Part shown: piece by piece, positions 2,961 to 42,282 of the stretch
How positions within the stretch are numbered: the first letter of the stretch is position 1
Layout: each line of letters opens with the position of its first letter
Assembly (NCBI GenBank): GCA_009780795.1
Contig: WQZJ01000001.1
Span: forward strand, 1 to 42,282
Length of the DNA: 42,282 bases
From: Methanomassiliicoccaceae archaeon
GTDB lineage: Archaea; Thermoplasmatota; Thermoplasmata; Methanomassiliicoccales; Methanomethylophilaceae
Direction of reading: 5' to 3'
The notes under the pieces: model-generated
Told to the model about the DNA's origin: nothing
The model's input: only the letters and a program-made list of their open reading frames with translations
Database searches by the model: none
Program-made: the position numbers and the translations under genes

Positions 2961-3950
2961 GTGAGAGGGACGGCTAAGATAAGAATAGGCATATACGGCT
3001 ACGGGAACGTCGGTAAGAGCGTCGAAAAGGCGGTGGCGAGGAATGATGACATGTCATTGGAGGCAGTGTTCACGAGACGCGACCCGAACAGTGTGACACC
3101 TACAACGGGAGTGAAGGTCGTCCCGTCCGATGAGATACTCACGTACAAGGACAAAATAGATGTGATGGTGCTCTGCGGCGGATCCGCGACCGACCTCCCG
3201 GAACAGGGGCCGGAGATGGCGAAGCACTTCAACACGGTCGATTCGTATGACACACACGCCAAGATCCCCGAGTACCTCAAGAAGATGGACAAGAACGCCC
3301 GCATGAACGGCAGAACCGCAGTGATATCTGTCGGATGGGATCCCGGTGTACTGTCGATGATGAGGTCGCTGTTCATATCGTCCGTCCCGGACGGAGGTAA
3401 TAACACATTCTGGGGTCCCGGCGTGAGTCAAGGTCATTCTGACGCCATCAGGAGAGTGGAAGGCGTCGCTGACGGCATCCAGTACACAGTGCCGTCGGAG
3501 TCCGTCCTGAACGAGGTCAGGGACGGTTCGCGAAGTGAATACACGATGGCGCAGAAGCACAGGAGGGTCTGTTACGTAGTCCCGAAGGAAGGCGCGAACA
3601 GAGATACGATAGCCGGCGGGATCAGGAACATGCCTAACTACTTCGTCGGTTACGACACAGAGATCAATTTCATAACGGCGGAACAGATGCACCGCGAACA
3701 TAGCAAGATGCCTCACGAGGGATACGTGTTCCGGAACGGGACGACAGGCACGGACGAAAGAAATCACATGGGGATGCACATCAAATTCGACAGTAACCCC
3801 GGGTTCACAGCATCTGTCATGGTCGCGTACGCGAGAGCGGCGTTCAGATTATTCGGCGAAGGGGACCACGGTGCGAAGACAGTGTTCGACATACCCGTGT
3901 CGTATCTGTCCAAAGAGGGCAGGGACCGGCTGATCGCCGAGCTGTTATGA
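2961..3950 (+). CDS. ddh: meso-diaminopimelate D-dehydrogenase
   Basis: It starts with GTG. It has the Rossmann N-terminus IGIYGYGNVGKS and the Ddh-typical blocks VLCGGSATDLPEQGP, ISVGWDPGVLS and FWGPGVSQGHSDAIRRV. Confidence 0.8.
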   Translation: MRGTAKIRIGIYGYGNVGKSVEKAVARNDDMSLEAVFTRRDPNSVTPTTGVKVVPSDEILTYKDKIDVMVLCGGSATDLPEQGPEMAKHFNTVDSYDTHAKIPEYLKKMDKNARMNGRTAVISVGWDPGVLSMMRSLFISSVPDGGNNTFWGPGVSQGHSDAIRRVEGVADGIQYTVPSESVLNEVRDGSRSEYTMAQKHRRVCYVVPKEGANRDTIAGGIRNMPNYFVGYDTEINFITAEQMHREHSKMPHEGYVFRNGTTGTDERNHMGMHIKFDSNPGFTASVMVAYARAAFRLFGEGDHGAKTVFDIPVSYLSKEGRDRLIAELL

Positions 3951-3954
3951 CACG

Positions 3955-4500
3955 GTGCGGAAGATGATACCAGATAAAGATTGCACCGGATGTCCGCTGT
4001 GCGAGGCCAGGACGCAGGTGGTGATGCCCGACGGTAACAGGAACTCAACGGTGGCCCTGGTGGGCGAGGCCCCCGGCGAAAGGGAGGACATAACAGGAAG
4101 ACCATTCATCGGAAGGTCCGGGAAGTTACTGGAGAAGATAATGAACGAGGCCGGGATAGAGAGGTCGGACGTTTTGATAACGAACACGGTGAAGTGTCGA
4201 CCTCCGAACAACAGGGACCCGACGAAAGAGGAGATGGACGCATGCAGACCGTTCCTTGAATATGAATTATCCAGTAGGAAGGTGGTCGTAGGTCTCGGAA
4301 GGTCCGCGTGTCGCACTCTCGTAGGCTATGAGGGCAAGATGGCCGACATAGTGAACACGGAGATCAAGATCAACATAGGCGGAACGGAGATAACGTTCAT
4401 ACCGACATACCATCCGGCCGCATGCATATACAACAACAATTCGAAGGCGGAGCTGAGAAGGACGATGGCCATACTGAAGAGCAGGTACATGGAGCGATAA
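3955..4500 (+). CDS. udg: family 4 uracil-DNA glycosylase (Fe-S type)
   Basis: It has CTGCPLCE, GEAPGEREDITGRPFIGRSGKLL and TNTVKCRPPNNRDP, which are canonical family-4 UDG motifs. The start is GTG 3955, with an alternative ATG at 3964. Confidence 0.85.
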   Translation: MRKMIPDKDCTGCPLCEARTQVVMPDGNRNSTVALVGEAPGEREDITGRPFIGRSGKLLEKIMNEAGIERSDVLITNTVKCRPPNNRDPTKEEMDACRPFLEYELSSRKVVVGLGRSACRTLVGYEGKMADIVNTEIKINIGGTEITFIPTYHPAACIYNNNSKAELRRTMAILKSRYMER

Positions 4501-4501
4501 C

Positions 4502-5281
4502 ATGAGCGGCATAGATTGGAACGATGTCTCAGGCGTGATGATAGACATGGACGGTACTGTGTACAAAGGAGGTAACGTGATACCGGGCGCCCCGGAGTTC
4601 ATCGAGAGACTTAAGGAAAAAGGGATACCGTTCGTGTTCCTTACCAACAACTCATCATCGAACCGCGCCAACTACCTGATAAAACTGCTCGGGATGGGAT
4701 TCAAGGTAAGCATCGATAACATACTGACGTCGACCACGGCGACGATAGAATATCTTCTCAAATATCAAAACGGAAAGACGGTCTATCTGCTGGGGACGCC
4801 GAGGTTCGTCTCCGAGATAGAGGAAGCAGGCATTATCGTTGCGGATGATGCGGACGTAGTTCTGCTGGCATTCGACACTACGATAACGTACGAGAGGATA
4901 AACACCGCGTACCAGCTGATCAAAAGAGGCGCATCACTGGTGGCGACACATCCGGACGATCTTTGTCCGACGGAGAACGGATACGATGTGGATATAGGAC
5001 CGTTCATAAGACTGTTCGAATCCATGACATCCGTGAAAGCCGAGGTCATCGGAAAACCGAACCCGATGATGGCGATGATGGCCGCGGAGAGGATGAACGT
5101 CCCCCATGAGGGAATGGTGATGATAGGCGACAGGATATACACGGACATGAAAATGGCGACGGATGCGGGCATACGGTCGGTGATGGTGCTGTCGGGCGAG
5201 GCAAAAAGGGAAGATGTGGAACGATCGGGCATAACGCCGACGATGATCGTAGATTCAGTGGACGATCTGATGCGTCAGTGA
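4502..5281 (+). CDS. HAD-superfamily subfamily IIA phosphatase (NagD-like)
   Basis: It has the HAD motif I DMDGTVY followed by FLTNNSS, and the C-terminal GDRIYTDM motif IV. Confidence 0.8.
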   Translation: MSGIDWNDVSGVMIDMDGTVYKGGNVIPGAPEFIERLKEKGIPFVFLTNNSSSNRANYLIKLLGMGFKVSIDNILTSTTATIEYLLKYQNGKTVYLLGTPRFVSEIEEAGIIVADDADVVLLAFDTTITYERINTAYQLIKRGASLVATHPDDLCPTENGYDVDIGPFIRLFESMTSVKAEVIGKPNPMMAMMAAERMNVPHEGMVMIGDRIYTDMKMATDAGIRSVMVLSGEAKREDVERSGITPTMIVDSVDDLMRQ

Positions 5282-6305: not shown

Positions 6306-7541
6306 ATGGATTATTCATATCTGCATCTTGGCGAGAAGGCGGACCCGGACGACCATGTGATATGCGTGTACAGAATAACAACCAAACTTCCGATGGAACA
6401 GGCGGCGGCATCGCTCGCCGCCGAACAGTCCACCGGTACGTGGACCGGGATATCGACGCTTGAGCGAGACATCTTCGAGAGATACGGCGGCCGTGTGACG
6501 GATATCGACGGTAACGTGGCGACGGTGGCGTTCCCGAAGGATGACTTCTGCATGGACATAGGCGCGGTACCGCAGATACTGAGCATCATAGCCGGGAATC
6601 TGTTCGGACTGCATTCGATAGATAAAGTGAGATTGGAGAATGTATTCTTTCCCAAGTCCATAAGGGATGAGTTCAAGGGACCGAAGTTCGGACTGGCCGG
6701 ACTGAGAAGGATACTGGACCGCCCGGAGAAGCCGCTGGTCGGTACGATAGTGAAACCCAAGATAGGACTGTCGCCGAAGGACACCGCCCGTTATGTGTAC
6801 GAGTCGGGGAAGGGAGGGCTGACCAACAGCAAGGATGATGAGACGCTAGTGAACCAGAAGTTCTGTCCGCTCCAGGACAGGACGGTCGCTATTGCCGAGG
6901 TTCTCGATCAACTGGAGAGCGAAGGTCACAAAATGGTGCACGCCATAAACGTCAGCACAAGCGGCCATAAGATAATAGAGGCGGCGGAGAACGCACAGGC
7001 ATGGGGTGCCAAGCAGATAATGGTCGATGTGCTCACCACGGGCTTCGCTGCCGTCCAGGCGCTCGCCGAGGACCCGTCCATCAAAGTTCCGATACATGTG
7101 CACAGGACTATGCACGGCGCCATGACGAGGGATCCGCTGCACGGGATAGCGATGCTCCCCATAGCGAAGCTCTGCCGCATGTGCGGTGCCGATGCGCTGC
7201 ACGTCGGTACGCTGGGCATAGGGAAGATGGAAGGTGACAGCAAAAGCGATATCAACAACATAGACGCATGCTTCGACCGTTCTGTCGAGTACAAGACGGT
7301 AATGCCCGTCTGCTCCGGCGGGGTGTACCCCGGGCTGATAGACAAGATAGTCAGGGCTGCGGGCCGTGATGTGCAGATACGGGCGGGAGGCGGTGTCGCC
7401 GGCCATCCCGGCGGTATACGTGCCGGTGCGCTCGCCATGTCACAGGCGGTGGACGCCGCATTCTTCGGAATTCCGTTGGACGAGTACGCGGCGACGCACA
7501 ATGAATTAAGAACGGCGCTGGACATGTGGGGTCTGAAATGA
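6306..7541 (+). CDS. rbcL: type III ribulose-1,5-bisphosphate carboxylase/oxygenase large subunit
   Basis: All catalytic blocks are present: KPKIGLS, GGLTNSKDDE (carbamylated Lys plus Mg ligands), IHVHRTMHGA, LHVGT, GKMEGD, VCSGG and GGGVAGHPGG. ATG 6306 is preceded by GGTGA. The track start at 6273 overlaps the e2b2 gene. Confidence 0.9.
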   Translation: MDYSYLHLGEKADPDDHVICVYRITTKLPMEQAAASLAAEQSTGTWTGISTLERDIFERYGGRVTDIDGNVATVAFPKDDFCMDIGAVPQILSIIAGNLFGLHSIDKVRLENVFFPKSIRDEFKGPKFGLAGLRRILDRPEKPLVGTIVKPKIGLSPKDTARYVYESGKGGLTNSKDDETLVNQKFCPLQDRTVAIAEVLDQLESEGHKMVHAINVSTSGHKIIEAAENAQAWGAKQIMVDVLTTGFAAVQALAEDPSIKVPIHVHRTMHGAMTRDPLHGIAMLPIAKLCRMCGADALHVGTLGIGKMEGDSKSDINNIDACFDRSVEYKTVMPVCSGGVYPGLIDKIVRAAGRDVQIRAGGGVAGHPGGIRAGALAMSQAVDAAFFGIPLDEYAATHNELRTALDMWGLK

Positions 7542-9058
7542 AACTTATCGCCAGATTGTACGACGTGGATTCCTCGGAGCCGAGAGTGGTCGCTCACGGA
7601 GAGGATTGCAAAGAATTGGGAGTGAAGCACATGGACCGCGTCAGGATCGACGCCAGGTCGTCGAAGGTGATAGTGGTGAGCATATCCGACTCCGTGGTGA
7701 AGAAGGGTGAGATATTGATACCAATGTCCCTGATGACGACGGTGGGCGCGGAGGTAGGGACGCCGGTGGAAGTGGTATATTCCCCGAAGCCCGATTCCGT
7801 GCGCAGCATCAGAAAGAAGATGGACTCCGTCAAACTGACCAAGGACGAGATACACGAGATCGTGTTCGACATCTATGAGGGAAAATTATCAAAGATAGAG
7901 ATATCCGCGTGGCTCACCGCACTGTACATCAACGGCATGGATAACGAGGAGATAGCAAACTTCACGCAGTCGATGGTGAACACCGGTGAGAAGATAGTGT
8001 TCGACAGGACCCCGGTGTTCGACTTCCACAGTCTAGGCGGCGTCCCCGGTAACAAGGTGACACCGATCGTCGTCTCGATAGTGGCATCCGCGGGTCTAAT
8101 GTTGCCGAAGACATCGTCCCGTGCCATAAGCAGCGCATGCGGCACGTCCGACTTCGTTGAGGTGTTCTGTGACGTGGAGTTGGATGCGGCGAAGCTCAAG
8201 AAGATATCCGAGACGATAGGTGGTGTGCTGGCATGGGGCGGTTCCATGAACATAGCACCGGTGGATGACATGGTGATAGACATAGAGTACCCGCTTGGGA
8301 TAAACCCGCGCGCACAGATGCTCGCGTCGATCCTCAGCAAGAAACTCGCGATAAGCGCAACCCATCTGCTCGTGGACATACCGATGGGCTCCGGCACAAA
8401 GGTGAAGACACTGGAGGAGGCGAGGGAGTACGCACGCGACCTGATGGAACTGGGCACAAAACTCGGAATGAGGACCGAGTGTGCGATAACATACGGCGAC
8501 CAGCCGGTCGGTAACGCGATCGGTCCGGCGCTGGAGGCGCGTGAATGCATACGCATACTGGAGGGTATGACACATCCCGCGAGCGTGGTCGAGAAGGCAT
8601 GCGACCTTGCCGGTATGATACTTGAGATGGGAGGCATCCCGGACGGACCGACGAGGGCGCGTGAGATATTGTCGTCGGGTGAGGCGCTCAGCAAGTTCAG
8701 GGAGATAGTGGAGGCGCAGGGCGGCAAGAAGAACATAATGTCTGAGGACATCCCCATCGGAAAATACGTACATGATGTGAAGGCCGTTCGGGCCGGATAC
8801 ATCCATTCGATAGACAACAAGGACCTTGTGACGATCGCACGTGCGGCCGGTGCGCCCGCGGACAAGGGCGCAGGTATATTACTGTACAGAAAGAAGGGGC
8901 AGAGGGCCGAGAAAGGTGAGACGCTCTTCCAGATATATGCGGACAACCAGACAAAGGCGGACCGCGCCAGGGACATGGCCATAAAACTGGCACCGGTCGA
9001 CATCGAAGGGATGCTGATAAAGAAGGTCCCGAACCCGTCGGCACTGAAGGGGATATGA
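7538..9058 (+). CDS. deoA: AMP phosphorylase (thymidine-phosphorylase family with N-terminal extension)
   Basis: It is about 506 aa and has thymidine phosphorylase family blocks (HSLGGVPGNKVT, TSSRAISSACGTSD). An additional N-terminal domain is typical of archaeal AMPpase. Its start forms an ATGA overlap with the rbcL stop at 7538-7541. Confidence 0.85.
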   Translation: MKLIARLYDVDSSEPRVVAHGEDCKELGVKHMDRVRIDARSSKVIVVSISDSVVKKGEILIPMSLMTTVGAEVGTPVEVVYSPKPDSVRSIRKKMDSVKLTKDEIHEIVFDIYEGKLSKIEISAWLTALYINGMDNEEIANFTQSMVNTGEKIVFDRTPVFDFHSLGGVPGNKVTPIVVSIVASAGLMLPKTSSRAISSACGTSDFVEVFCDVELDAAKLKKISETIGGVLAWGGSMNIAPVDDMVIDIEYPLGINPRAQMLASILSKKLAISATHLLVDIPMGSGTKVKTLEEAREYARDLMELGTKLGMRTECAITYGDQPVGNAIGPALEARECIRILEGMTHPASVVEKACDLAGMILEMGGIPDGPTRAREILSSGEALSKFREIVEAQGGKKNIMSEDIPIGKYVHDVKAVRAGYIHSIDNKDLVTIARAAGAPADKGAGILLYRKKGQRAEKGETLFQIYADNQTKADRARDMAIKLAPVDIEGMLIKKVPNPSALKGI

Positions 9059-35617: not shown

Positions 35618-36937
35618 ATGGCGAACATCAAAGAGAACGTTATACGCGCAAAGGACGCCGCGACCGTCCTGTCGGCCGTGAGCACCAGCGTGAAGGATAA
35701 GGCGCTCGAGGCAATGGCCGATGCTCTGGACAACTTCAGGAAGGAAGTGATCTCCGCGAACGCCGAGGATATGATCGCAGCGGAGAGGATGAGGGCCGCC
35801 GGCGAGCTTACAGACCCTATGGTAAAGCGTCTGAGGGTGAACGACGAGAAGATCGACGGAATGATGGACGGCATAAGGGATGTGAGGAAGTTAAAGGACC
35901 CGATCGGCGAGACGATGTCCGCGATGGAGCTGGACGATGGTCTGACGTTGTACCAGGTAAGATGTCCGATAGGACTCATAGGTGTGATATTCGAATCTAG
36001 GCCGGATGTGGTCCCGCAGATAATGGCGTTATGCCTCAAGAGCGGTAACGCCGTCGCGTTCAAAGGAGGCAAGGAGGCGGCAGGTACGAACCGCGCGCTG
36101 TTCGATATATTGTCAAAGGCAGCGTACGCGGCCGGTATACCCGAGGGCTCGTTCTGTCTCATGGAGACAAGGGAGGACGTGTCCGCGATATTGGGAATGG
36201 ACGGCCTGATAGACCTTCTCATACCGCGAGGGTCCAACGAGTTCGTTAGGTATATCCAAGAGAACACAAAGATACCGGTCCTCGGTCACTCCGCAGGGAT
36301 ATGTCACGTATATGTGGATGCGGACGCGGACATCGATGTCGCTGTGAATGTGACGCTGGACTCGAAGATACAGTACCCGGCGGTCTGCAATGCCGTCGAG
36401 ACGTTACTCGTGAACGTTCGCATAGCTGATGAGTTCATCCCGAGGATGACGGACATCTTCATCAGGAACGGCGTGGAGGTAAGGGCGGACGCATCCGCCA
36501 TGAAACTGGCCGGAACGCACGTGAAGGAGGCGAAGGACAGCGATTGGGACGAGGAGTACAACGACCTCGTGATCTCGATGAGGACAGTGGATTCACTGGA
36601 TGAGGCGGTGGATTTCATCAACAAACACGGTTCGAAGCACACGGATGCGATAATCACACGCAACAAGGACAATGCGCTCAGGTTCGCGAACTTCGTCGAT
36701 TCATCGAGCGTGATGGTGAACGCATCCACCCGATTCTCGGACGGATACAGGTACGGGAAGGGCGCCGAGGTGGGGATAAGCACGAACAAGATACACTCCA
36801 GGGGCCCGGTGGGCATGGAGGGACTGACGATATACAAGTACGTGCTGACAGGCGAAGGGCACGTTGTGAAGGATTACGCGGGAAAGGATGCGAAGAGATA
36901 CACGCACAGAACGCTGGACAAAGAATTCAAGTTGTGA
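35618..36937 (+). CDS. proA: gamma-glutamyl phosphate reductase
   Basis: It is an aldehyde-dehydrogenase-fold protein with ProA blocks (IGVIFESRPDV, AFKGGKEA, PAVCNAVETLLV, HGSKHTDAIIT). Confidence 0.9.
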   Translation: MANIKENVIRAKDAATVLSAVSTSVKDKALEAMADALDNFRKEVISANAEDMIAAERMRAAGELTDPMVKRLRVNDEKIDGMMDGIRDVRKLKDPIGETMSAMELDDGLTLYQVRCPIGLIGVIFESRPDVVPQIMALCLKSGNAVAFKGGKEAAGTNRALFDILSKAAYAAGIPEGSFCLMETREDVSAILGMDGLIDLLIPRGSNEFVRYIQENTKIPVLGHSAGICHVYVDADADIDVAVNVTLDSKIQYPAVCNAVETLLVNVRIADEFIPRMTDIFIRNGVEVRADASAMKLAGTHVKEAKDSDWDEEYNDLVISMRTVDSLDEAVDFINKHGSKHTDAIITRNKDNALRFANFVDSSSVMVNASTRFSDGYRYGKGAEVGISTNKIHSRGPVGMEGLTIYKYVLTGEGHVVKDYAGKDAKRYTHRTLDKEFKL

Positions 36938-36941
36938 CACC

Positions 36942-38060
36942 ATGAACAGAAAAGAGCACCTGAAGGGGGCGCACAGGATCGTCGTGAAAGTCGGAACATC
37001 ATCCATAACAAGAGGGGGACCGAGCGCATCGTCCGAGTTCATGGACACCATAGCCAGACAGGTGAAGGATCTAAAGGACAAAGGAACGGAGGTGTTGATA
37101 GTAACATCCGGCGCGATAGGCATCGGACTGGCGGTGATGGACGCCAGGGCGCGGTCGCGCGAGATACCCGTGAGGCAGGCGGCGGCATCCATAGGACAGA
37201 GCGCGCTGATGCAGAAATGGAACGAGAGCTTCCAAAGGCACGGTATAGCGACGGCACAGATACTGCTGACATATGACTTCTACTCTGACCGCGAGAAATA
37301 CCTCAACCTGAGGAACGCGATACAGACGATACTGGAGTTCGGTGCGGTGCCGATATTCAATGAGAACGATGCGATATGTGTCAAAGAGATAGACGCGGTG
37401 TTCGGTGACAACGACACACTTTCGGCGATGGTGTCGATAAAGATGGACGCCGACCTTCTGATAATATTGTCGGATGTTCACGGTCTATACGATAAAGATC
37501 CGAAGTTATTCGGAGACGCTAAGCTGATCCCGGAGGTGACGGACATAACCGATCGGATACGGGAGCAGGCCGGCGACACGGCTGGCCGCCTGGGGACGGG
37601 AGGCATGAGGACGAAGATACGTGCCGCCGAGATATGCCATGAGGCGGGATGCAGCGTCATCATCGCCGGGAGCGACGTCGACGATGTCATCGAAAGAATA
37701 ATCGACGGCGAGGAGATAGGCACGATATTCATCACCGATAAGAGAGAAAGCAGGAAAAGCAGCTGGATACGGTATGCGCATGCGTCCGGCTCGATAGAGG
37801 TGGATGAGGGTGCCAAGAAGGCGCTGCTGAAGCACGTGAGCCTTCTTGCGGTCGGTATAAAGGACACAAAAGGAAGGTTCGACAGAGGCGATGTCGTCAA
37901 CATCACATGCGGCGGTGCAGTGATAGCGAAAGGCATACCCGATTACAATTCCGACGACATATCGAAGATCAAGGGGCTGCACAGTGACAGGATGTTCGAG
38001 GTACTCGGTCACAAGAACTATGACAACGTGATAAGGAGCGAGAACATAGTCATAATGTGA
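36942..38060 (+). CDS. proB: glutamate 5-kinase with C-terminal PUA domain
   Basis: It has RIVVKVGTSSIT, VTSGAIGIG, NENDA, GDNDTLSA and GTGGMRTK, with a PUA-like C-terminus. ATG 36942 follows the proA stop by 4 nt. The track start at 36888 overlaps proA. Confidence 0.9.
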   Translation: MNRKEHLKGAHRIVVKVGTSSITRGGPSASSEFMDTIARQVKDLKDKGTEVLIVTSGAIGIGLAVMDARARSREIPVRQAAASIGQSALMQKWNESFQRHGIATAQILLTYDFYSDREKYLNLRNAIQTILEFGAVPIFNENDAICVKEIDAVFGDNDTLSAMVSIKMDADLLIILSDVHGLYDKDPKLFGDAKLIPEVTDITDRIREQAGDTAGRLGTGGMRTKIRAAEICHEAGCSVIIAGSDVDDVIERIIDGEEIGTIFITDKRESRKSSWIRYAHASGSIEVDEGAKKALLKHVSLLAVGIKDTKGRFDRGDVVNITCGGAVIAKGIPDYNSDDISKIKGLHSDRMFEVLGHKNYDNVIRSENIVIM

Positions 38061-38078
38061 CGCGTTCGCGGAACGCGT
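38060..38078 (+). terminator. perfect 8-bp stem / 3-nt loop hairpin immediately at the proB stop
   Basis: The sequence acgcgttc-gcg-gaacgcgt begins with the last base of the TGA. AT-rich sequence follows. It could be a terminator element or part of the integration junction. Confidence 0.4.
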
Positions 38079-38230
38079 ATATCGATTATTTAGAGGAATA
38101 AGTGGGCCCAGCCGAGATTTCGGCATCGCACGGCCAGCACTTCAAAAAACAGATTTCAATAACGGTATTTTTCACGTTATTGATTTTCATTGAAAACAAG
38201 TAATCAAAATACAGAAAACACCCGGTATAT

Positions 38231-39271
38231 CTAATCAATCGCGTCCTTTTCCCATCGATCGCCGAGAGCGTTCCGGACAGCCTTGCGCTTGTCGATCCGG
38301 AGGTAATACTTCTCGGTGTTCGTCTGCCTCTCATGCCGCAGCTGCTTCGACGCAGCTCCGATCAGAGACAGATCGTCATCGACGAGCAGAGTGAGCAGCG
38401 TCGGCCGCAGATCCTTGATCCGGAAGCTGACTCCGGAGAGCTCCTCGATCTTGATCTTATGTTTCCGGAACGTGTTTCCGCAAAGAGGCTTACCTGTAGA
38501 GGGATTGACGAAAACAAACTTCGTTTTGACTCCCATCTCTGCGAGGTACTCTTCCCGCTCCTTCAGGGAACGTTCGAGGCGTCTGAGCATATCCTGTCGG
38601 ATGATGTTGACCTTTTCCTTCTTGCCCCAGGAACCCTCGCCCTTGGGGTGACGTACATAGAATGTCTCCGCGGCGAGATTGATATCCTGCATCTCCGCCT
38701 CGAACATCTCCTTAGGCCGGCAGCCGGTGCCGAAGGCCAAAGGCAGCAGCACCCGCATGACGATCCCCGGATATCCGCCGATCAGATCAATGGCGGCGAA
38801 GATCCTCCGCACCTCCTCGATCGGCAGCGCACGAACCTCACCGTCGCCGTCGGCCGACTTGATCACGATCTCGTCATCCTCGGCCATCCTCTCAATGATC
38901 TTGTTGCCCCAGAACTCAAGATATCCCTTCAGGATCTTGACATACGTTCCTTCAGAACTGTTGGTCATCTCTTTCGCCTTCATCCACCTGAAGAAGGCCT
39001 CGATCTCAGCCGGCCCCATGTGACGAGGGTCTGTAGTCTCGATGGATCCGGAAGACTTGAATCTCTCGAAGACCTCTGAAAAGTACTCCAGCTTCCGACC
39101 GTTCTCATAGATCGTGACCGGCGTGAATCTTATCGATTTCTTGGCGATGTAATGCTTGATCCCTGCCTTGAATGGATATCGGCCGAGCCTGATCCCGCTG
39201 CGCGTCTCCGCCCACCGGCTGCTCTCCGCAGCCTTCTTTTTTGTTCTCTTTTTCGCTCCCATCCTGTGCAC
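38231..39271 (-). CDS. int: tyrosine recombinase / phage-type integrase
   Basis: The C-terminal catalytic region has GTGCRPKEM (Arg I), KDLRPT (H/K-x-x-R) and LRHERQTNTEKYYLR (His plus the Tyr nucleophile). The gene ends in TAG. Confidence 0.8.
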   Translation of the reverse strand: MHRMGAKKRTKKKAAESSRWAETRSGIRLGRYPFKAGIKHYIAKKSIRFTPVTIYENGRKLEYFSEVFERFKSSGSIETTDPRHMGPAEIEAFFRWMKAKEMTNSSEGTYVKILKGYLEFWGNKIIERMAEDDEIVIKSADGDGEVRALPIEEVRRIFAAIDLIGGYPGIVMRVLLPLAFGTGCRPKEMFEAEMQDINLAAETFYVRHPKGEGSWGKKEKVNIIRQDMLRRLERSLKEREEYLAEMGVKTKFVFVNPSTGKPLCGNTFRKHKIKIEELSGVSFRIKDLRPTLLTLLVDDDLSLIGAASKQLRHERQTNTEKYYLRIDKRKAVRNALGDRWEKDAID

Positions 39272-39273
39272 CC

Positions 39274-39394
39274 CAATTTTGTTAATTTGTTAACTTTTTT
39301 GTCTGTGAAACAACATAGCCAGCATGTTTTGTTTTTTGTAGGTTAAAATAAAGTTAAAACGACAATTTTGTTAACTTATTTGATTTTGTTAACC
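39274..39394. repeat. cluster of TTTGTTAA(C/T) iteron-like repeats between the ATPase gene end and the integrase start
   Basis: There are four copies, at 39277-39285, 39286-39294, 39366-39375 and 39384-39393. The string CAATTTTGTTAA occurs twice. Two GTTAAAA motifs lie at 39342-39348 and 39353-39359. Confidence 0.6.
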
Positions 39395-40917
39395 TCCTCT
39401 GAAAGGTCAAAAGAGTCCGTCCACTCCGGTGCCCACATCCTCAAATATTGCATGAAGAAGGGCTTGAAGTCACGGTGCTGCGGCTTGAAATAAGACTTGT
39501 TCTGTTTCCCCCGTTCATACGAAAAACCGAGGGAGAGGATCTTCGCTGTGATCGTCTTCGTAGGTACCTCGTCCCGGCCGGCGTTGCCCTGATCCTTCAG
39601 GATCGCGTTGTAGCAGTTCGCGACGTCTGTGGTGCTGACATTTTCAACGATATGGTCAAAGTTGGCCGCCGTGATCACGGGGTTGAGTTTGTCGACAACG
39701 AGCTCTTTCCGCCGGCTGAAGACGGCGTCGACCATGGCCATGAACGTGATCGCTTCCGGTGTGTCTATGATGATCTCCCGGTTGGCCTTGACGCTGTCGG
39801 CAATAAGCTCGATCGTGGGCCTCTCTGAGCCTGTCAGTAAGCTCGTCGTGTACAATGTGCTCGCGATGTTGCGAGCTCGCCCCCTGATCTGCGGAGCACC
39901 CTTCATCCCATTCACGAAGGCGTAATACCACTGTCCCTTCCATTCGCCGCTGTCGATCCTATCCCGGAGGTGTCTTCTCGTTTGAGCTGCAGGTTCCTCC
40001 CAGTTCAGCCCAAAGGTCTTCGATCCGCCGAGGAAGGCCCATCGGAGGGCGTAGAGCTCTGTCCGGATCCTGTAAGGGCTGATGTCATCGAGGAGCTCCT
40101 CATCCTCATGGATGCTGTCGATATCGCCCAGCTCCAGATCGTCCGGCATACCGATCATCCCGATCCGGATGCCGCGGTTGTATACGTCTTCAGGTAGACC
40201 TTCAGCTTTGACCGTGAGGGCGATGTGCGTATGCACGTGATTTTTGTATACGCGCTGAGACTTGGGGTCTGCGCGGATCAATAAATTCCCCTTCTCGAAG
40301 GCTGCTTTGATGAGCTCGCAGACCTCCATGCCGCGATCGCTCTGCATGGTGCCCATGAGCTCGTCCAATAGCAGCGTCACGTTGTCGGTTTCGATCTGCC
40401 GGCTGAGAGCAGCTGCAGAATAATTGGTCACATACTGGCCACGGTAGACGATGAGATTCAATGTCTTCAGCGTGGTCGACTTTCCGGAGACCGTCACACC
40501 GTCAAATATGAGCACCGGCGCATATCTGAATACCTCCCGGAAGTACGATGAGATAACCCAATTGGCGACCAGATCGTAAGCGTTGTCGTCAGAGAACCAC
40601 ACGAACCTCCGGAGATATCGGACGATGCGTCCGTGGATCTGCGACAGATCGTTCTCGATCGGCAGCAGCTCATGGTCGTTGAACTTTCCCGGAGAATGCC
40701 ATGCAGACCTGTGCACGGCATTCTCAAGGATCCTGATCTCGTCCTTGGTATACTTGTCCTGGTTGTAGATATCGGACGCGGAGATCGTCTCTGTGTCGCC
40801 GGCACCGTTCAGGATGAGCACCTTCGTGAGGTACTTGTCGTCGACGCTGCGGTCTGTTCCTCGATCTAAATTCGGGACGACGAACCGCTCGATCATTTTG
40901 GCGCTGAAGATACTCAT
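39376..40917 (-). CDS. P-loop NTPase of the mobile element (candidate replication helicase/initiator, SF3-like)
   Basis: It is 513 aa with Walker A DGVTVSGKSTTL and Walker B VTLLLDEL. It sits between small regulatory ORFs and the integrase, as plasmid or viral replication proteins do. I do not recognise the family precisely. Confidence 0.55.
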   Translation of the reverse strand: MSIFSAKMIERFVVPNLDRGTDRSVDDKYLTKVLILNGAGDTETISASDIYNQDKYTKDEIRILENAVHRSAWHSPGKFNDHELLPIENDLSQIHGRIVRYLRRFVWFSDDNAYDLVANWVISSYFREVFRYAPVLIFDGVTVSGKSTTLKTLNLIVYRGQYVTNYSAAALSRQIETDNVTLLLDELMGTMQSDRGMEVCELIKAAFEKGNLLIRADPKSQRVYKNHVHTHIALTVKAEGLPEDVYNRGIRIGMIGMPDDLELGDIDSIHEDEELLDDISPYRIRTELYALRWAFLGGSKTFGLNWEEPAAQTRRHLRDRIDSGEWKGQWYYAFVNGMKGAPQIRGRARNIASTLYTTSLLTGSERPTIELIADSVKANREIIIDTPEAITFMAMVDAVFSRRKELVVDKLNPVITAANFDHIVENVSTTDVANCYNAILKDQGNAGRDEVPTKTITAKILSLGFSYERGKQNKSYFKPQHRDFKPFFMQYLRMWAPEWTDSFDLSEEVNKIK

Positions 40918-40995
40918 GGGAATCCCTCCAAACGTGTCTGAGTACGGTGTCCGCAGCTCGCCTTCACGATGAGCTCCGGCGATATCGGCGCCGCC
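40911..40995. repeat. direct repeat copy A (85 bp, 32-bp perfect core at 40960-40991)
   Basis: It aligns without gaps to 41522-41606, an offset of exactly 611 bp. Confidence 0.9.
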
Positions 40996-41003
40996 TTCGT
41001 CAT
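40914..41003 (-). CDS. 29-aa mini-ORF encoding the repeated peptide MTKAAPISPELIVKASCGHRTQTRLEGFP
   Basis: It is wedged between the 72-aa ORF and the ATPase gene by two ATGA overlaps (41000-41003 and 40914-40917). The peptide is conserved with the C-terminus of the 86-aa ORF despite many nucleotide differences. It is below the ORF-track length cutoff. Confidence 0.5.
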   Translation of the reverse strand: MTKAAPISPELIVKASCGHRTQTRLEGFP

Positions 41004-41218
41004 TTGAATAGATCCTCTACGTTCTGTGTAAATTCCAGGAACAGTTTCTCTATTGGTTCCGTTATATTCGGGTCCAGGAACACCGCGATCTCCAAGATCA
41101 CTCTCACAAGGGTCGATAAGGCCCTTCCGTCCTTCGTCCTGGCCTCTATCGTTATCACGTTGCCGGATATCATTTGCGTCAGCTCGAGAGCGTCCGCTGA
41201 TTGCTCTGTTTTTTCCAT
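41000..41218 (-). CDS. hypothetical 72-aa protein of the mobile element
   Basis: It is an ORF with no evident low-complexity sequence and is transcribed divergently from the RHH gene. I do not recognise the family. Confidence 0.5.
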   Translation of the reverse strand: MEKTEQSADALELTQMISGNVITIEARTKDGRALSTLVRVILEIAVFLDPNITEPIEKLFLEFTQNVEDLFK

Positions 41219-41232
41219 TTTTGCTCAATCCT

Positions 41233-41304
41233 ACAAGAATAATTCTTGTTATGCCGTAACTGTTATGGCAGATATTTATAATTTTTTGCAAGAATACCTC
41301 TTGT
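41233..41304. promoter_or_regulatory. bidirectional promoter/operator region of the element
   Basis: It holds the 17-nt perfect palindrome ACAAGAAT-A-ATTCTTGT (41233-41249) and the imperfect palindrome TGCCGTAAC-T-GTTATGGCA (41252-41270). The TATA box TTTATAA lies at 41275-41281, about 27 nt before ATG 41305. A second CAAGA-ATACC-TCTTG inverted repeat lies at 41289-41303. Confidence 0.55.
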
Positions 41305-41466
41305 ATGGCAGGACGTAAACCATACATTACAGTGACTCTTCCGGAAGAAATGCTTGAGTACCTTAGGAAAAAAGTAGAATCTCGCGAGTTCGCAAGCATG
41401 GCGCATGGGATCGAATTATGCGTTCTCCGGTTCAAAGAAGCAGAAGAGAAGGGGTTGAGGCCCTGA
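41305..41466 (+). CDS. 53-aa ribbon-helix-helix (CopG/Arc-like) DNA-binding protein, absent from the ORF track
   Basis: My own translation is MAGRKPYITVTLPEEMLEYLRKKVESREFASMAHGIELCVLRFKEAEEKGLRP. It fits a beta-strand (ITVTLP), helix, helix layout. A TATA box at leaderless distance precedes it, next to palindromic operators. Confidence 0.6.
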   Translation: MAGRKPYITVTLPEEMLEYLRKKVESREFASMAHGIELCVLRFKEAEEKGLRP

Positions 41467-41521
41467 GGGCATTTTAGGATTGAGCTTTCTAAAATTCTAA
41501 CCTCAGAGGCCCCATTGTTTG

Positions 41522-41606
41522 TACTCATATGAAACCCTCCAGTCTGCTTTGTGTCTTGTGTGCGCAGCTAGCCTTCACGATGAGCTCCGGCGATATCGGC
41601 GCAGCC
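41522..41606. repeat. direct repeat copy B (85 bp, 32-bp perfect core at 41571-41602)
   Basis: It aligns without gaps to 40911-40995. Confidence 0.9.
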
Positions 41607-41785
41607 GGTGAGATCTCATAAAAGAGGCCACAGACCTTCACGGTGTAATTCTTCTTCTTCGCCGCCGAGACAAAGATACCTTGACCGTTGTCGTAGTGCC
41701 CGAAGCAGTACAGCAGGAACCCTCCCTCGACGGGATCCCAAATCTTCCGTCCGCACCGGTCACACGGTTCTCTGTTTACTTCCAT
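41525..41785 (-). CDS. 86-aa zinc-ribbon-like protein ending in the repeated peptide tail
   Basis: It has the N-terminal CDRCGRKIW and the C-terminal AAPISPELIVKASCAHKTQSRLEGFI. GGAGGAG lies upstream of ATG 41785. Confidence 0.55.
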   Translation of the reverse strand: MEVNREPCDRCGRKIWDPVEGGFLLYCFGHYDNGQGIFVSAAKKKNYTVKVCGLFYEISPAAPISPELIVKASCAHKTQSRLEGFI

Positions 41786-41789
41786 GTGA

Positions 41790-41972
41790 TCACTCCTCCG
41801 GAAAACTTATGATGCTGCGCTGTTCCCTCTCAGCCCGCTTCTTGGCATCCATGGCGCGTCTTATACGTCCCCAGGGGTCAGACGTCGTCTTGGCGTTCTC
41901 TTTCCCTTCCTGCGGCCACTCTGAGGCCTCCGCGACCTTTAACTGAAGGTCGCAATCCTCACACTCTTTCAT
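41790..41972 (-). CDS. hypothetical 60-aa protein (MKECEDCDLQ...), mobile element
   Basis: Its ATG forms an ATGA overlap with the upstream ORF at 41969-41972. It has a basic, coiled C-terminal half. The longer track start at 41999 overlaps the upstream ORF. Confidence 0.45.
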   Translation of the reverse strand: MKECEDCDLQLKVAEASEWPQEGKENAKTTSDPWGRIRRAMDAKKRAEREQRSIISFPEE

Positions 41973-42130
41973 GGCATCGCCCCCGGAAGCAGGATCCACT
42001 GAGCCGTATGGTCAGTTCCCTTGTCACAGCCGTCCGGACCTTCCAGGTGCGATGTCGCCGGCTCCACGCAGGCTCTGTTGCATCCGACGCATTGCCACCA
42101 CCATTGCCGGCGATGTCCATTGCCGGTCAC
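41969..42130 (-). CDS. hypothetical 53-aa Cys/Trp-rich protein, mobile element
   Basis: GTG 42130 lies 6 nt after GGAGGG and forms a GTGA overlap with the stop of the upstream partial ORF. It contains WWWQCVGCNRAC. Confidence 0.4.
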   Translation of the reverse strand: MTGNGHRRQWWWQCVGCNRACVEPATSHLEGPDGCDKGTDHTAQWILLPGAMP

Positions 42131-42282
42131 GGGGTTCCCTCCTCGAACGTCACAATGTCCACGCACTCGATAGCGTCGCCACAATGCGGGCAGAAATCCA
42201 GAGTCAAGTATCCGTAGTAATCGCCGTCATTATAGTGGGCTTCGGCGCAGATCCTGCAGGTGGCGATGTTGTAGAAGTAGAC
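42127..42282 (-). CDS. zinc-ribbon protein, C-terminal fragment (N-terminus outside the window)
   Basis: My own translation of the minus strand from the window edge is VYFYNIATCRICAEAHYNDGDYYGYLTLDFCPHCGDAIECVDIVTFEEGTP, then a stop. It contains a CxxC...CxxC pair. Confidence 0.45.
   Translation of the reverse strand, partial: VYFYNIATCRICAEAHYNDGDYYGYLTLDFCPHCGDAIECVDIVTFEEGTP

Follow-up and report, generated by a model that had tools for sequence, protein, structure and literature searches.

Close to the right end of a 42,282-nt stretch of DNA from a Methanomassiliicoccaceae archaeon (contig WQZJ01000001.1 of assembly GCA_009780795.1; hereafter the window) there is an integrated mobile element in which an 85-nt direct repeat brackets a small cassette encoding a putative ribbon-helix-helix (RHH) regulator. 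Our analysis indicates that this repeat is probably a duplicated gene junction, in which the last codons of a small protein gene, coding for a tail that resembles a PCNA-interacting protein (PIP) box, are copied together with the start region of the element's putative replicative helicase gene, and that the helicase-proximal copy probably acts as a translational relay. We refer to the small protein as ZnR86, to the helicase-proximal repeat as copy A and to the repeat at the end of the ZnR86 gene as copy B.

Copy A (40911..40995) and copy B (41522..41606) are both read on the minus strand, and a repeat finder aligned them without gaps at 81% identity over 85 nt each with a spacing of 611 nt. 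The coordinates, length and spacing, together with a perfect 32-nt core, are exactly those given in a preliminary description of this DNA that had been made from the sequence alone. Copy B consists of the last 26 codons, the stop and an overlapping ATG (ATGAGTA) at the 3' end of the ZnR86 gene (41525..41785, minus strand), which codes for a small Cys-rich protein (CxxC...CxxH...C) of 86 aa with a predicted disordered C-terminal tail. Copy A has the identical 26-codon tail layout and lies in a 29-codon open reading frame (ORF; pep29, MTKAAPISPELIVKASCGHRTQTRLEGFP, 40914..41003, minus strand) whose ATG overlaps the stop of the upstream gene orf72 (AATGA) and whose stop overlaps the ATG of the helicase gene, again as ATGAGTA. 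The assignment of copy B to the tail of an 86-aa ORF and of copy A to a 29-codon ORF held between two ATGA overlaps is thus also as first described. The minus-strand translations of the two copies are AAPISPELIVKASCGHRTQTRLEGFP and AAPISPELIVKASCAHKTQSRLEGFI, each followed by a stop, and the homology includes this stop, the ATG and three more bases of the helicase-type start. The core GCCTTCACGATGAGCTCCGGCGATATCGGCGC, which is annotated without strand, has only two sites in the window (40960..40991 in copy A and 41571..41602 in copy B), and in copy B it encodes (A)PISPELIVKA. No further window match was found at <=3 mismatches (0 expected from 100 shuffles), and the lack of any match at <=9 mismatches in the related loci or elsewhere in the window rules out the core as a dispersed DNA motif.

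The repeat is observed in five independent contigs: the window and four contigs from other samples (L042-L045). In each of these four, which are separated from the window by 2-18 single nucleotide polymorphisms (SNPs), both copies are found at an unchanged spacing, and none of the SNPs falls inside either repeat copy. The assembly artefact that the preliminary description had considered possible is excluded, since samples that can be told apart by their SNPs yielded the same structure. Folding of the repeat also provided no indication of RNA structure, with coding-strand z-scores of -0.4 (each copy) and -0.1 (core) and values no better than -0.8 on the opposite strand, and an Rfam search of positions 38000-42282 gave no match.

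Conservation between the copies follows the peptide frame. Specifically, there are 4 amino acid differences between the copies in this frame as compared to 8-11 in the other five frames, and the 15 codons located 3' of the core contain 15 nucleotide differences that give rise to only 4 replacements (G/A, R/K, T/S and P/I). A simulation returned a probability of 1.2e-4 for <=4 amino acid changes and no stop after 15 random substitutions. In the diverged half, the NG86 estimates are 0.27 for nonsynonymous divergence (dN) and ~2.0 for synonymous divergence (dS). This divergence stops sharply at the core, where 0/32 positions differ as compared to 15/42 in the adjacent flank, the same flank count as first reported (Fisher p = 6.5e-5). 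Peptide-level selection, which the preliminary description had suggested from the synonymous changes, is thus borne out by the frame-specific conservation and dN/dS values, as well as by the family alignment and the synonymous tail of a distant locus described below.

We identified the protein family to which the repeated peptide belongs by an exhaustive profile-free HMMER search with the 86-aa ZnR86 sequence, which recovered proteins of 60-108 aa from related archaeal elements. Family members have an N-terminal Cys-rich domain (CxRCxRKxW...GF.LxCFGH...GIFV..ERKK.Y.VK.C.MF.E.) followed by a variable linker, often containing PE(I/L)(V/L)(K/H), the motif encoded by the 32-nt core. The best-conserved feature of the family is a C-terminal box with an invariant F85 and with Q79 and E83 in >=90% of members, its consensus being Q-[ST]-x-[LIM]-E-G-F-[F/I] at the extreme C-terminus. 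Examples of family tails, given up to the stop where they reach it, are QSSIEGFF, QSNIEGFF, QSHIEGFFGG, QSFMEGFFG, QTQIEGF and QSMLEAFQ, as well as QRQIENFI. The box comprises the last 8 residues of the window copies (QSRLEGFI at 41528..41551 in copy B, which is the extreme C-terminus of ZnR86, and QTRLEGFP at 40917..40940 in copy A, both on the minus strand) and of most homologues. The 26-aa repeat therefore corresponds to the family linker plus the box, with copy A homology beginning exactly where the N-terminal domain ends. A peptide that could not initially be assigned to a known family is thus the conserved C-terminal tail of the ZnR86 family, ending in a PIP-type box. In an AlphaFold2 model of ZnR86, which is of low confidence as a whole (predicted local distance difference test score, pLDDT, of 56), residues 53-77 have a pLDDT <50, so the tail is predicted to be disordered. 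As regards the N-terminal domain, residues 13-44 (window 41654-41749) match multiple repeats in proteins of 1100-1600 aa by HMMER, and one related locus, L052, encodes an RCC1-repeat protein nearby; this domain may resemble a single RCC1-like blade.

PCNA clients usually carry the PIP consensus QxxhxxFF at an extreme terminus (PMC3504372), and a consensus peptide KTTQSTLDSFFK has been reported for archaea (PMC4929162). As judged by sequence, the window tails fit the PIP pattern and closely resemble this archaeal peptide. The ZnR86 family matches Q-x-x-[L/I/M]-x-x-[F/Y]-[F/Y/W], with the window copies having a non-aromatic residue at the last position, and the full QxxhxxFF is present in 4/10 retrieved homologues. 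There are thus good grounds to expect that the ZnR86 tail binds host PCNA, and we think that it probably does. Archaeal clients with a C-terminal PIP box such as Fen1, RNase HII, NucS and NreA likewise end in the motif, which follows a flexible basic linker, and NreA also shares with ZnR86 an N-terminal Cys4 domain (PMC4929162, PMC3504372). Unlike these clients, the ZnR86 proteins, whose clamp binding is a prediction, are tiny (60-108 aa), element-encoded and unrelated in sequence, and those of the window have I or P in place of the second aromatic residue. The Thermococcales protein TIP (64 aa) and the eukaryotic p21 peptide are similarly small with a clamp-binding motif as the main feature, and by analogy such proteins could compete with host replication factors (PMC4929162). 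The putative PIP motif of TIP is, however, N-terminal, confined to Thermococcales and without sequence relation to ZnR86, whereas ZnR86 has a C-terminal motif and a gene predicted to be coupled translationally to that of a replicative helicase.

The association of such tails with helicase starts extends to related loci. In 6/22 loci, the ORF that adjoins the helicase start has a Qxx[LIM]xx[FYW] motif among its 25 C-terminal residues, relative to a background of 1.9% of all ORFs and 1/40 host ORFs in the window. For example, in L006 a ZnR86 homologue carries the tail beside the helicase, and in L005 and L046 unrelated small basic proteins carry ...DQSHLSDFF... and ...DQSRLGDFF..., respectively. 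In L013 the ORF is an HNH endonuclease (2559-2987) that has ...NQTKLDFW... nine residues before its end. In L012, an HNH endonuclease (3432-3935; Pfam HNH 7.8e-13) overlaps the helicase start by ATGA and ends in ...HRTQTRLEAYL. Although the L012 and window helicases are only 39% identical, HRTQTR is present in both L012 and copy A, spelled with six consecutive synonymous codon differences, which argues strongly for peptide-level selection on the helicase-proximal tail. A PCNA-recruited HNH nuclease is known in ZRANB3 (PMC5481773), to which the L012 and L013 endonucleases with their PIP-like tails can be compared by analogy only, given that organisms, size and architecture all differ.

An ATGA junction leads from the tail-bearing ORF to the helicase in the window, L005, L006, L012 and L046. 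On the basis of these junctions, the tail-helicase junction appears to be ancestral, and single-copy versions of it do exist, as observed in L006, L012, L005 and L046. Several elements also have two or three PIP-like tails in a row. In the window these are found in orf69 (41790..41999, minus strand; a small upstream protein with a second PIP-like tail type ending in ...REQRSIISFPEE), ZnR86 and pep29. In L053 (2222-3563) a ZnR86 homologue is followed by an ATGA overlap and a 47-aa ORF (MTKAPYWPQ...NQRKLGEFGS) with a PIP-like tail and the same MTKA start as the 29-aa ORF of the window; this ORF leads by ATGA to the integrase with no helicase between. Finally, L004 has an 87-nt direct repeat of its own (2359-2445 and 3919-4005, 72% identical and 1560 nt apart) that encodes a different PIP-like tail (PVE.IFRDR.RQ..KREQRxLxxFxEGL) plus a GGAGG and that brackets a module including an RHH cassette.

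The repeat also contains translation signals. A Shine-Dalgarno sequence for the helicase, GGAGGG (40924..40929, minus strand), lies within the L-E-G codons of copy A, 6 nt upstream of the ATG, and the same hexamer is present in copy B at 41535-41540. ATGA overlaps, which mediate strict translational coupling in archaea (Huber et al. 2019, PMC6728339), occur from ZnR86 to a 204-codon ORF (41525-41528), from orf72 to pep29 (41000-41003) and from pep29 to the helicase (40914-40917). Because the ATGA overlap forces the last sense codon to be xxA, as is the case for the final proline of copy A, the final residue varies between I, P, L and S by element. In L005, L006 and L046 the Q..L..F motif lies 18-22 residues before the stop, a position that a Shine-Dalgarno sequence cannot explain, and thus peptide- and RNA-level constraints both act on the tail. 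As to whether the repeat is a peptide or a DNA or RNA element, the proposed selection on the peptide therefore holds, whereas part of the DNA conservation, that of LEGF and ATGA, is attributable to the helicase ribosome-binding site and the stop/start overlap.

Between the two copies is a cassette composed of the RHH gene and orf72. The putative 53-aa RHH regulator (41305..41466, plus strand) is the only plus-strand gene in the module and gave a weak match to Pfam RHH_1 (E 0.021; 15.2 bits, below the 20.5 cut-off), with an N-terminus, KPYITVTLPEEMLEYL, that has the typical strand-helix pattern. A divergent promoter region (41233..41304, annotated without strand) contains two 16-17 nt operator-like palindromes, ACAAGAATAATTCTTGT at 41233-41249 and CAAGAATACCTCTTGT at 41289-41304, located 55 nt apart and flanking a TATA-like box, TTTATAA. 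On its other side, orf72 (41000..41218, minus strand) codes for a 72-aa protein of unknown function that has no Pfam, PHROG or NCBIfam match and whose frame is under purifying selection in paralogous cassettes. A toxin-antitoxin pair with an RHH antitoxin was rejected, as the genes are divergent and orf72 has no toxin family match. RHH/orf72 cassettes are also found elsewhere, in L004, L013 and L033-L037; some loci carry two of them, with direct repeats of their own on either side. Sequence identity to the window RHH is 58-71% for the regulators of L033, L035, L036 and L037, although the helicases of these elements have only 39-44% identity to that of the window. In L004 the relation is the other way round, with only 42% identity for the RHH and 64% for the helicase. 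This discordance fits a cassette that was recombined in and suggests that cassettes have moved between lineages.

In several cassettes the RHH gene and its promoter lie between the arms of an inverted repeat, at corresponding sites but with arm sequences that differ between loci and thus covary (window 41223-41236 / 41472-41485; L037 3976-3986 / 4231-4241; L035 2917-2927 / 3168-3178; L004 2527-2540 / 2846-2859). One arm is located just upstream of the orf72 start, where it covers a Shine-Dalgarno-like AGGA in the window and L037 and GGAG in L035; in L004 it is 23-36 nt upstream. When a read-through minus-strand RNA is folded, a ~260-nt domain is closed by pairing of the arms in both minimum free energy and centroid structures, with folding z-scores of -2.8 in the window and -3.7 in L037. 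L033 and L036 are without the arm stem.

Additional small ORFs follow orf72 homologues in other cassettes. Micro-ORFs with a stop/start overlap at each end are present in L034b (14 codons, 4888-4932, between two ATGA overlaps and leading to the helicase), L035b (9 codons, 4766-4795) and L037 (5-codon MEVRA, 4452-4470), and L034a has a 53-codon relay ORF in the same position. The L034, L035 and L037 relay peptides lack a PIP box, and what these ORFs appear to have in common with pep29 is a role in relaying ribosomes from orf72 to the next gene.

A second connection is provided by a long frame across the cassette. The start that follows copy B had been regarded as non-coding; this ATG at 41528 opens the 204-codon ORF (ORF204, 40914..41528, minus strand), which runs from the copy B ATG to the copy A stop. 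Opposite the RHH gene it is antisense and in register at third codon positions; it then passes through the promoter and overlaps orf72 in a frame shifted by one base. The equivalent frame is open for 217-469 codons in 10/11 cassettes (window 40914-41528; L004 2449-3111; L033 1138-2100 and 2097-3125; L034 3080-3985 and 3811-4932; L035 2409-3623 and 4136-4795; L037 3463-4470; L013 1255-2001), where a null model that preserves both protein sequences with their codon usage but shuffles the intergenic spacer leaves it open in only 0.2-2% of trials per cassette. In 9/10 cassettes the frame closes with a stop/start overlap with the next gene (ATGA, TTGA or TGAATG), in most cases preceded by a GGAGG-like motif. 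A conserved 204-codon protein is ruled out by its unconserved, R/G/S/D-rich translation, with the RHH frame being 58-71% conserved as compared to 44-47% for the antisense frame; the openness itself is not explained by chance. It seems that openness rather than sequence is selected in this bridge, which would allow ribosomes, perhaps together with coupled transcription, to traverse the regulator gene despite its opposite orientation. In positions 1-38000 of the window, host coding strands are strongly purine-rich, with GC skew and AT skew of +0.1 to +0.2, and there are many antisense shadow ORFs of 100-376 codons, such as 7873-9003 on the minus strand opposite 7526-9058 on the plus strand. Long antisense ORFs alone are thus weak evidence of coding in this genome.

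Taken together, we think it probable that the repeat arose by duplication of a PIP-tail/helicase-start junction around a regulatory cassette, with copy A acting as the relay. As envisaged, the element would couple the translation of orf69, ZnR86, the helicase and the integrase in a single chain, and the ZnR86 box would dock the protein on host PCNA during element replication. The duplicated unit would consist of the last 26 codons of ZnR86, the embedded GGAGG and the ATGA that launches the helicase. A self-contained RHH/orf72 cassette, with its divergent promoter and two operators, would have inserted between ZnR86 and the helicase such that copy B preserves the ZnR86 tail while copy A preserves the native initiation region of the helicase. 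The short ORF of copy A would then relay ribosomes by termination-reinitiation onto the helicase start, these ribosomes coming either from orf72 through the 29-codon ORF or from ZnR86 through the 204-codon ORF that begins at the duplicated ATG. The preliminary description had likewise proposed that an ancestral junction was duplicated when a 611-bp module was inserted. This fits the single-copy junctions, the presence of the cassette elsewhere and the discordant phylogenies, although the expected near-identical variant without the cassette is absent from the protein collection.

Several observations weigh against this interpretation. Regarding the clamp, the two copies end in F-I and F-P and so lack the canonical FF; the proline of copy A may weaken any clamp binding; the GGAGG within the box imposes E-G as well, so that motif conservation is partly at the RNA level; and host PCNA is encoded neither in the window nor in the related loci. 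Regarding the bridge, its amino acid sequence is junk-like, with 20/63 changes relative to 11/63 in the orf72 frame for a paralogous pair, and long antisense ORFs are common in this purine-skewed genome. Regarding its history, the collections searched contain no relative, cassette-less or otherwise, with >65% helicase identity, so that the insertion is read from distant comparisons only, and the ZnR86 product expected from a precise deletion is absent from a 15-billion-protein collection. Finally, a dS of ~2 beside a 32-nt block without change is more than a single duplication can account for, and it requires either two diverged parental tails or later gene conversion. Two routes are possible: diverged orthologous tails could have been joined by recombination between related elements, with the core as the crossover, or an old duplication could have been homogenised locally by later gene conversion.

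One alternative is a mosaic origin, in which the tail-helicase junctions of two diverged elements recombined recently and the copy A peptide has no present function. Its conservation would date from a time when it was the tail of a full-length gene, the role of the 29-aa ORF would be limited to carrying the ribosome-binding site and ATGA, and the core would be a crossover or heteroduplex tract. Juxtaposed orthologues plus a crossover would be expected to give a dS of ~2 beside an unchanged core, and the RHH phylogeny is discordant with that of the helicase. There is also evidence of mosaicism in the element population, with similarity between L042 and the window breaking off upstream of 42112, and HRTQTRLE of the distant L012 is matched 8/8 by copy A as compared to 6/8 by copy B. 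However, at least two illegitimate joints are needed, and the parental form was not found in the searches made. Moreover, copy A starts exactly at the domain/linker boundary with its ATG coupled to the orf72 stop, an arrangement that looks selected, and analogous relay ORFs exist in other cassettes. We regard a mosaic origin as a minor but real possibility.

A further proposal, which we put forward tentatively and consider unlikely, is that the cassette is nested in an ORF that is selected only for openness. Ribosomes coming from upstream genes, and translating antisense to the regulator gene and across its promoter, would be handed by ATGA to the helicase, the covarying stem would mask the orf72 ribosome-binding site in the read-through RNA, and in the window the relay would also have captured a clamp tail. 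The product would be either the 29-aa PIP micro-peptide on its own or a disordered 204-aa protein with the PIP tail, and it would modulate host PCNA.

It is improbable that the core functions at the DNA level as a direct-repeat binding or recombination site for excising or inverting the 611-bp module. In favour of such a site, the core is perfect next to sequence with saturated synonymous positions, a crossover between its two copies would remove exactly 611 bp and bring back an in-frame ZnR86-tail-ATGA-helicase junction, and L006 has GCGGCG..ATATCG at the homologous spot. Against this, the core has no strong palindrome and, as described above, no match at <=9 mismatches in related loci or elsewhere in the window. 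The cassette is present in all five contigs, with no excised variant in the protein collection, and as the core codes for the PE(I/L)(V/L)K linker, coding constraint plus gene conversion is a sufficient explanation. The repeat copies also do not represent attL and attR of the element integrase, as both are internal, lie 1.6-2.3 kb from the integrase end and bracket only 611 bp, and no core copy is present near the proB junction. A transposon target-site duplication was similarly rejected, given that the repeat is 85 nt long and only 81% identical and that the 526-nt insert encodes only RHH and orf72. Least credible is that copy A is the remnant of a tandem ZnR86 paralogue whose N-terminal domain was replaced by the cassette, with gene conversion homogenising the core: rows of PIP-tailed small ORFs are typical (orf69/ZnR86/pep29 in the window, L053 and the 87-nt repeat of L004), but this is highly improbable because the homology extends 3 nt beyond the stop into ATGAGTA, which points to a duplicated junction, and there is no trace of a second N-terminal domain.

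The components of this arrangement are all of known kinds, whereas their combination and the conserved bridge and relay ORFs are new. Small archaeal plasmids of the pRN1 family carry CopG-type RHH proteins along with primase-helicase replication modules. The window resembles them in having a small RHH gene beside a replication helicase and palindromic operators at the promoter, and it differs in that the RHH gene is divergent and paired with a 72-aa protein, the helicase has no recognisable primase domain and integration involves a tyrosine recombinase. The shared stop/start overlaps, the Shine-Dalgarno sequence inside the upstream ORF and the chain of coupled genes are as known for archaeal termination-reinitiation at ATGA/TGATG (PMC6728339; PMC10666635). 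Unlike known coupling, ORFs of 5-29 or 204-377 codons with unconstrained sequence appear to be relays only, crossing an oppositely oriented regulator, and the window relay is built from a duplicated gene end.

If the tail does bind PCNA, then ZnR86 would represent an uncharacterised family of very small mobile element proteins that link an element helicase to the host clamp, in gut methanogens (the Methanomassiliicoccales) whose mobile elements are barely studied. The duplicated junction would be a natural example of a cassette inserted into a coupled operon while sparing both neighbours, in that copying a gene end lets the upstream protein keep a functional tail and the downstream gene keep its embedded ribosome-binding site and overlap. 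The recurrence of relay ORFs suggests that there is selection for retaining ribosomes on the message across inserted modules. We expect these results to be of moderate interest to specialists in archaeal mobile elements and in translational coupling.

The element itself occupies the window from ~38.1 kb to its end and adjoins host proB (36888-38060). Its genes lie on one strand and are mostly stop/start-overlapped, the sole exception in 38.1-42.3 kb being the 53-aa RHH gene. A tyrosine integrase (38231..39271, minus strand; Pfam Phage_integrase 3.4e-13) marks the element end next to proB. The gene that follows copy A codes for a 513-aa P-loop ATPase (39376..40917, minus strand) with Walker A GVTVSGKST and Walker B LLLDE motifs, and its relatives comprise only 23 proteins from metagenomes and from Candidatus Methanoplasma and Methanomassiliicoccales metagenome-assembled genomes. 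It had no Pfam, NCBIfam or PDB sequence match, weak PHROG matches (2.6e-5 to a family of unknown function and 7.6e-4 to DNA primase) and weak tblastn matches to plasmid Rep proteins, including one from a Sulfolobus islandicus plasmid. The AlphaFold model (pLDDT 85) has a fold like that of the MCM, NrS-1 and D5/E5 helicases: Foldseek E values were 1e-16 for viral primase-helicases and 1e-6 to 1e-4 for MPXV E5, MCM subunits and the helicase region of NrS-1, with TM-scores of only 0.3-0.5. We therefore treat it as the putative superfamily 3 (SF3)/MCM-like replicative helicase of the element. A scan of viral contigs gave no closer relatives, word-indexed protein searches with ZnR86 and orf72 recovered the same element only and a phage collection gave no match. 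At the opposite end, L042, which is otherwise 99.4% identical to the window (locus coordinates to ~9673), abruptly loses similarity upstream of window position 42112 (42112-42282), which indicates recent module exchange within the element population. Further upstream, a sister contig encodes an HD phosphohydrolase and a Zot-like ATPase.

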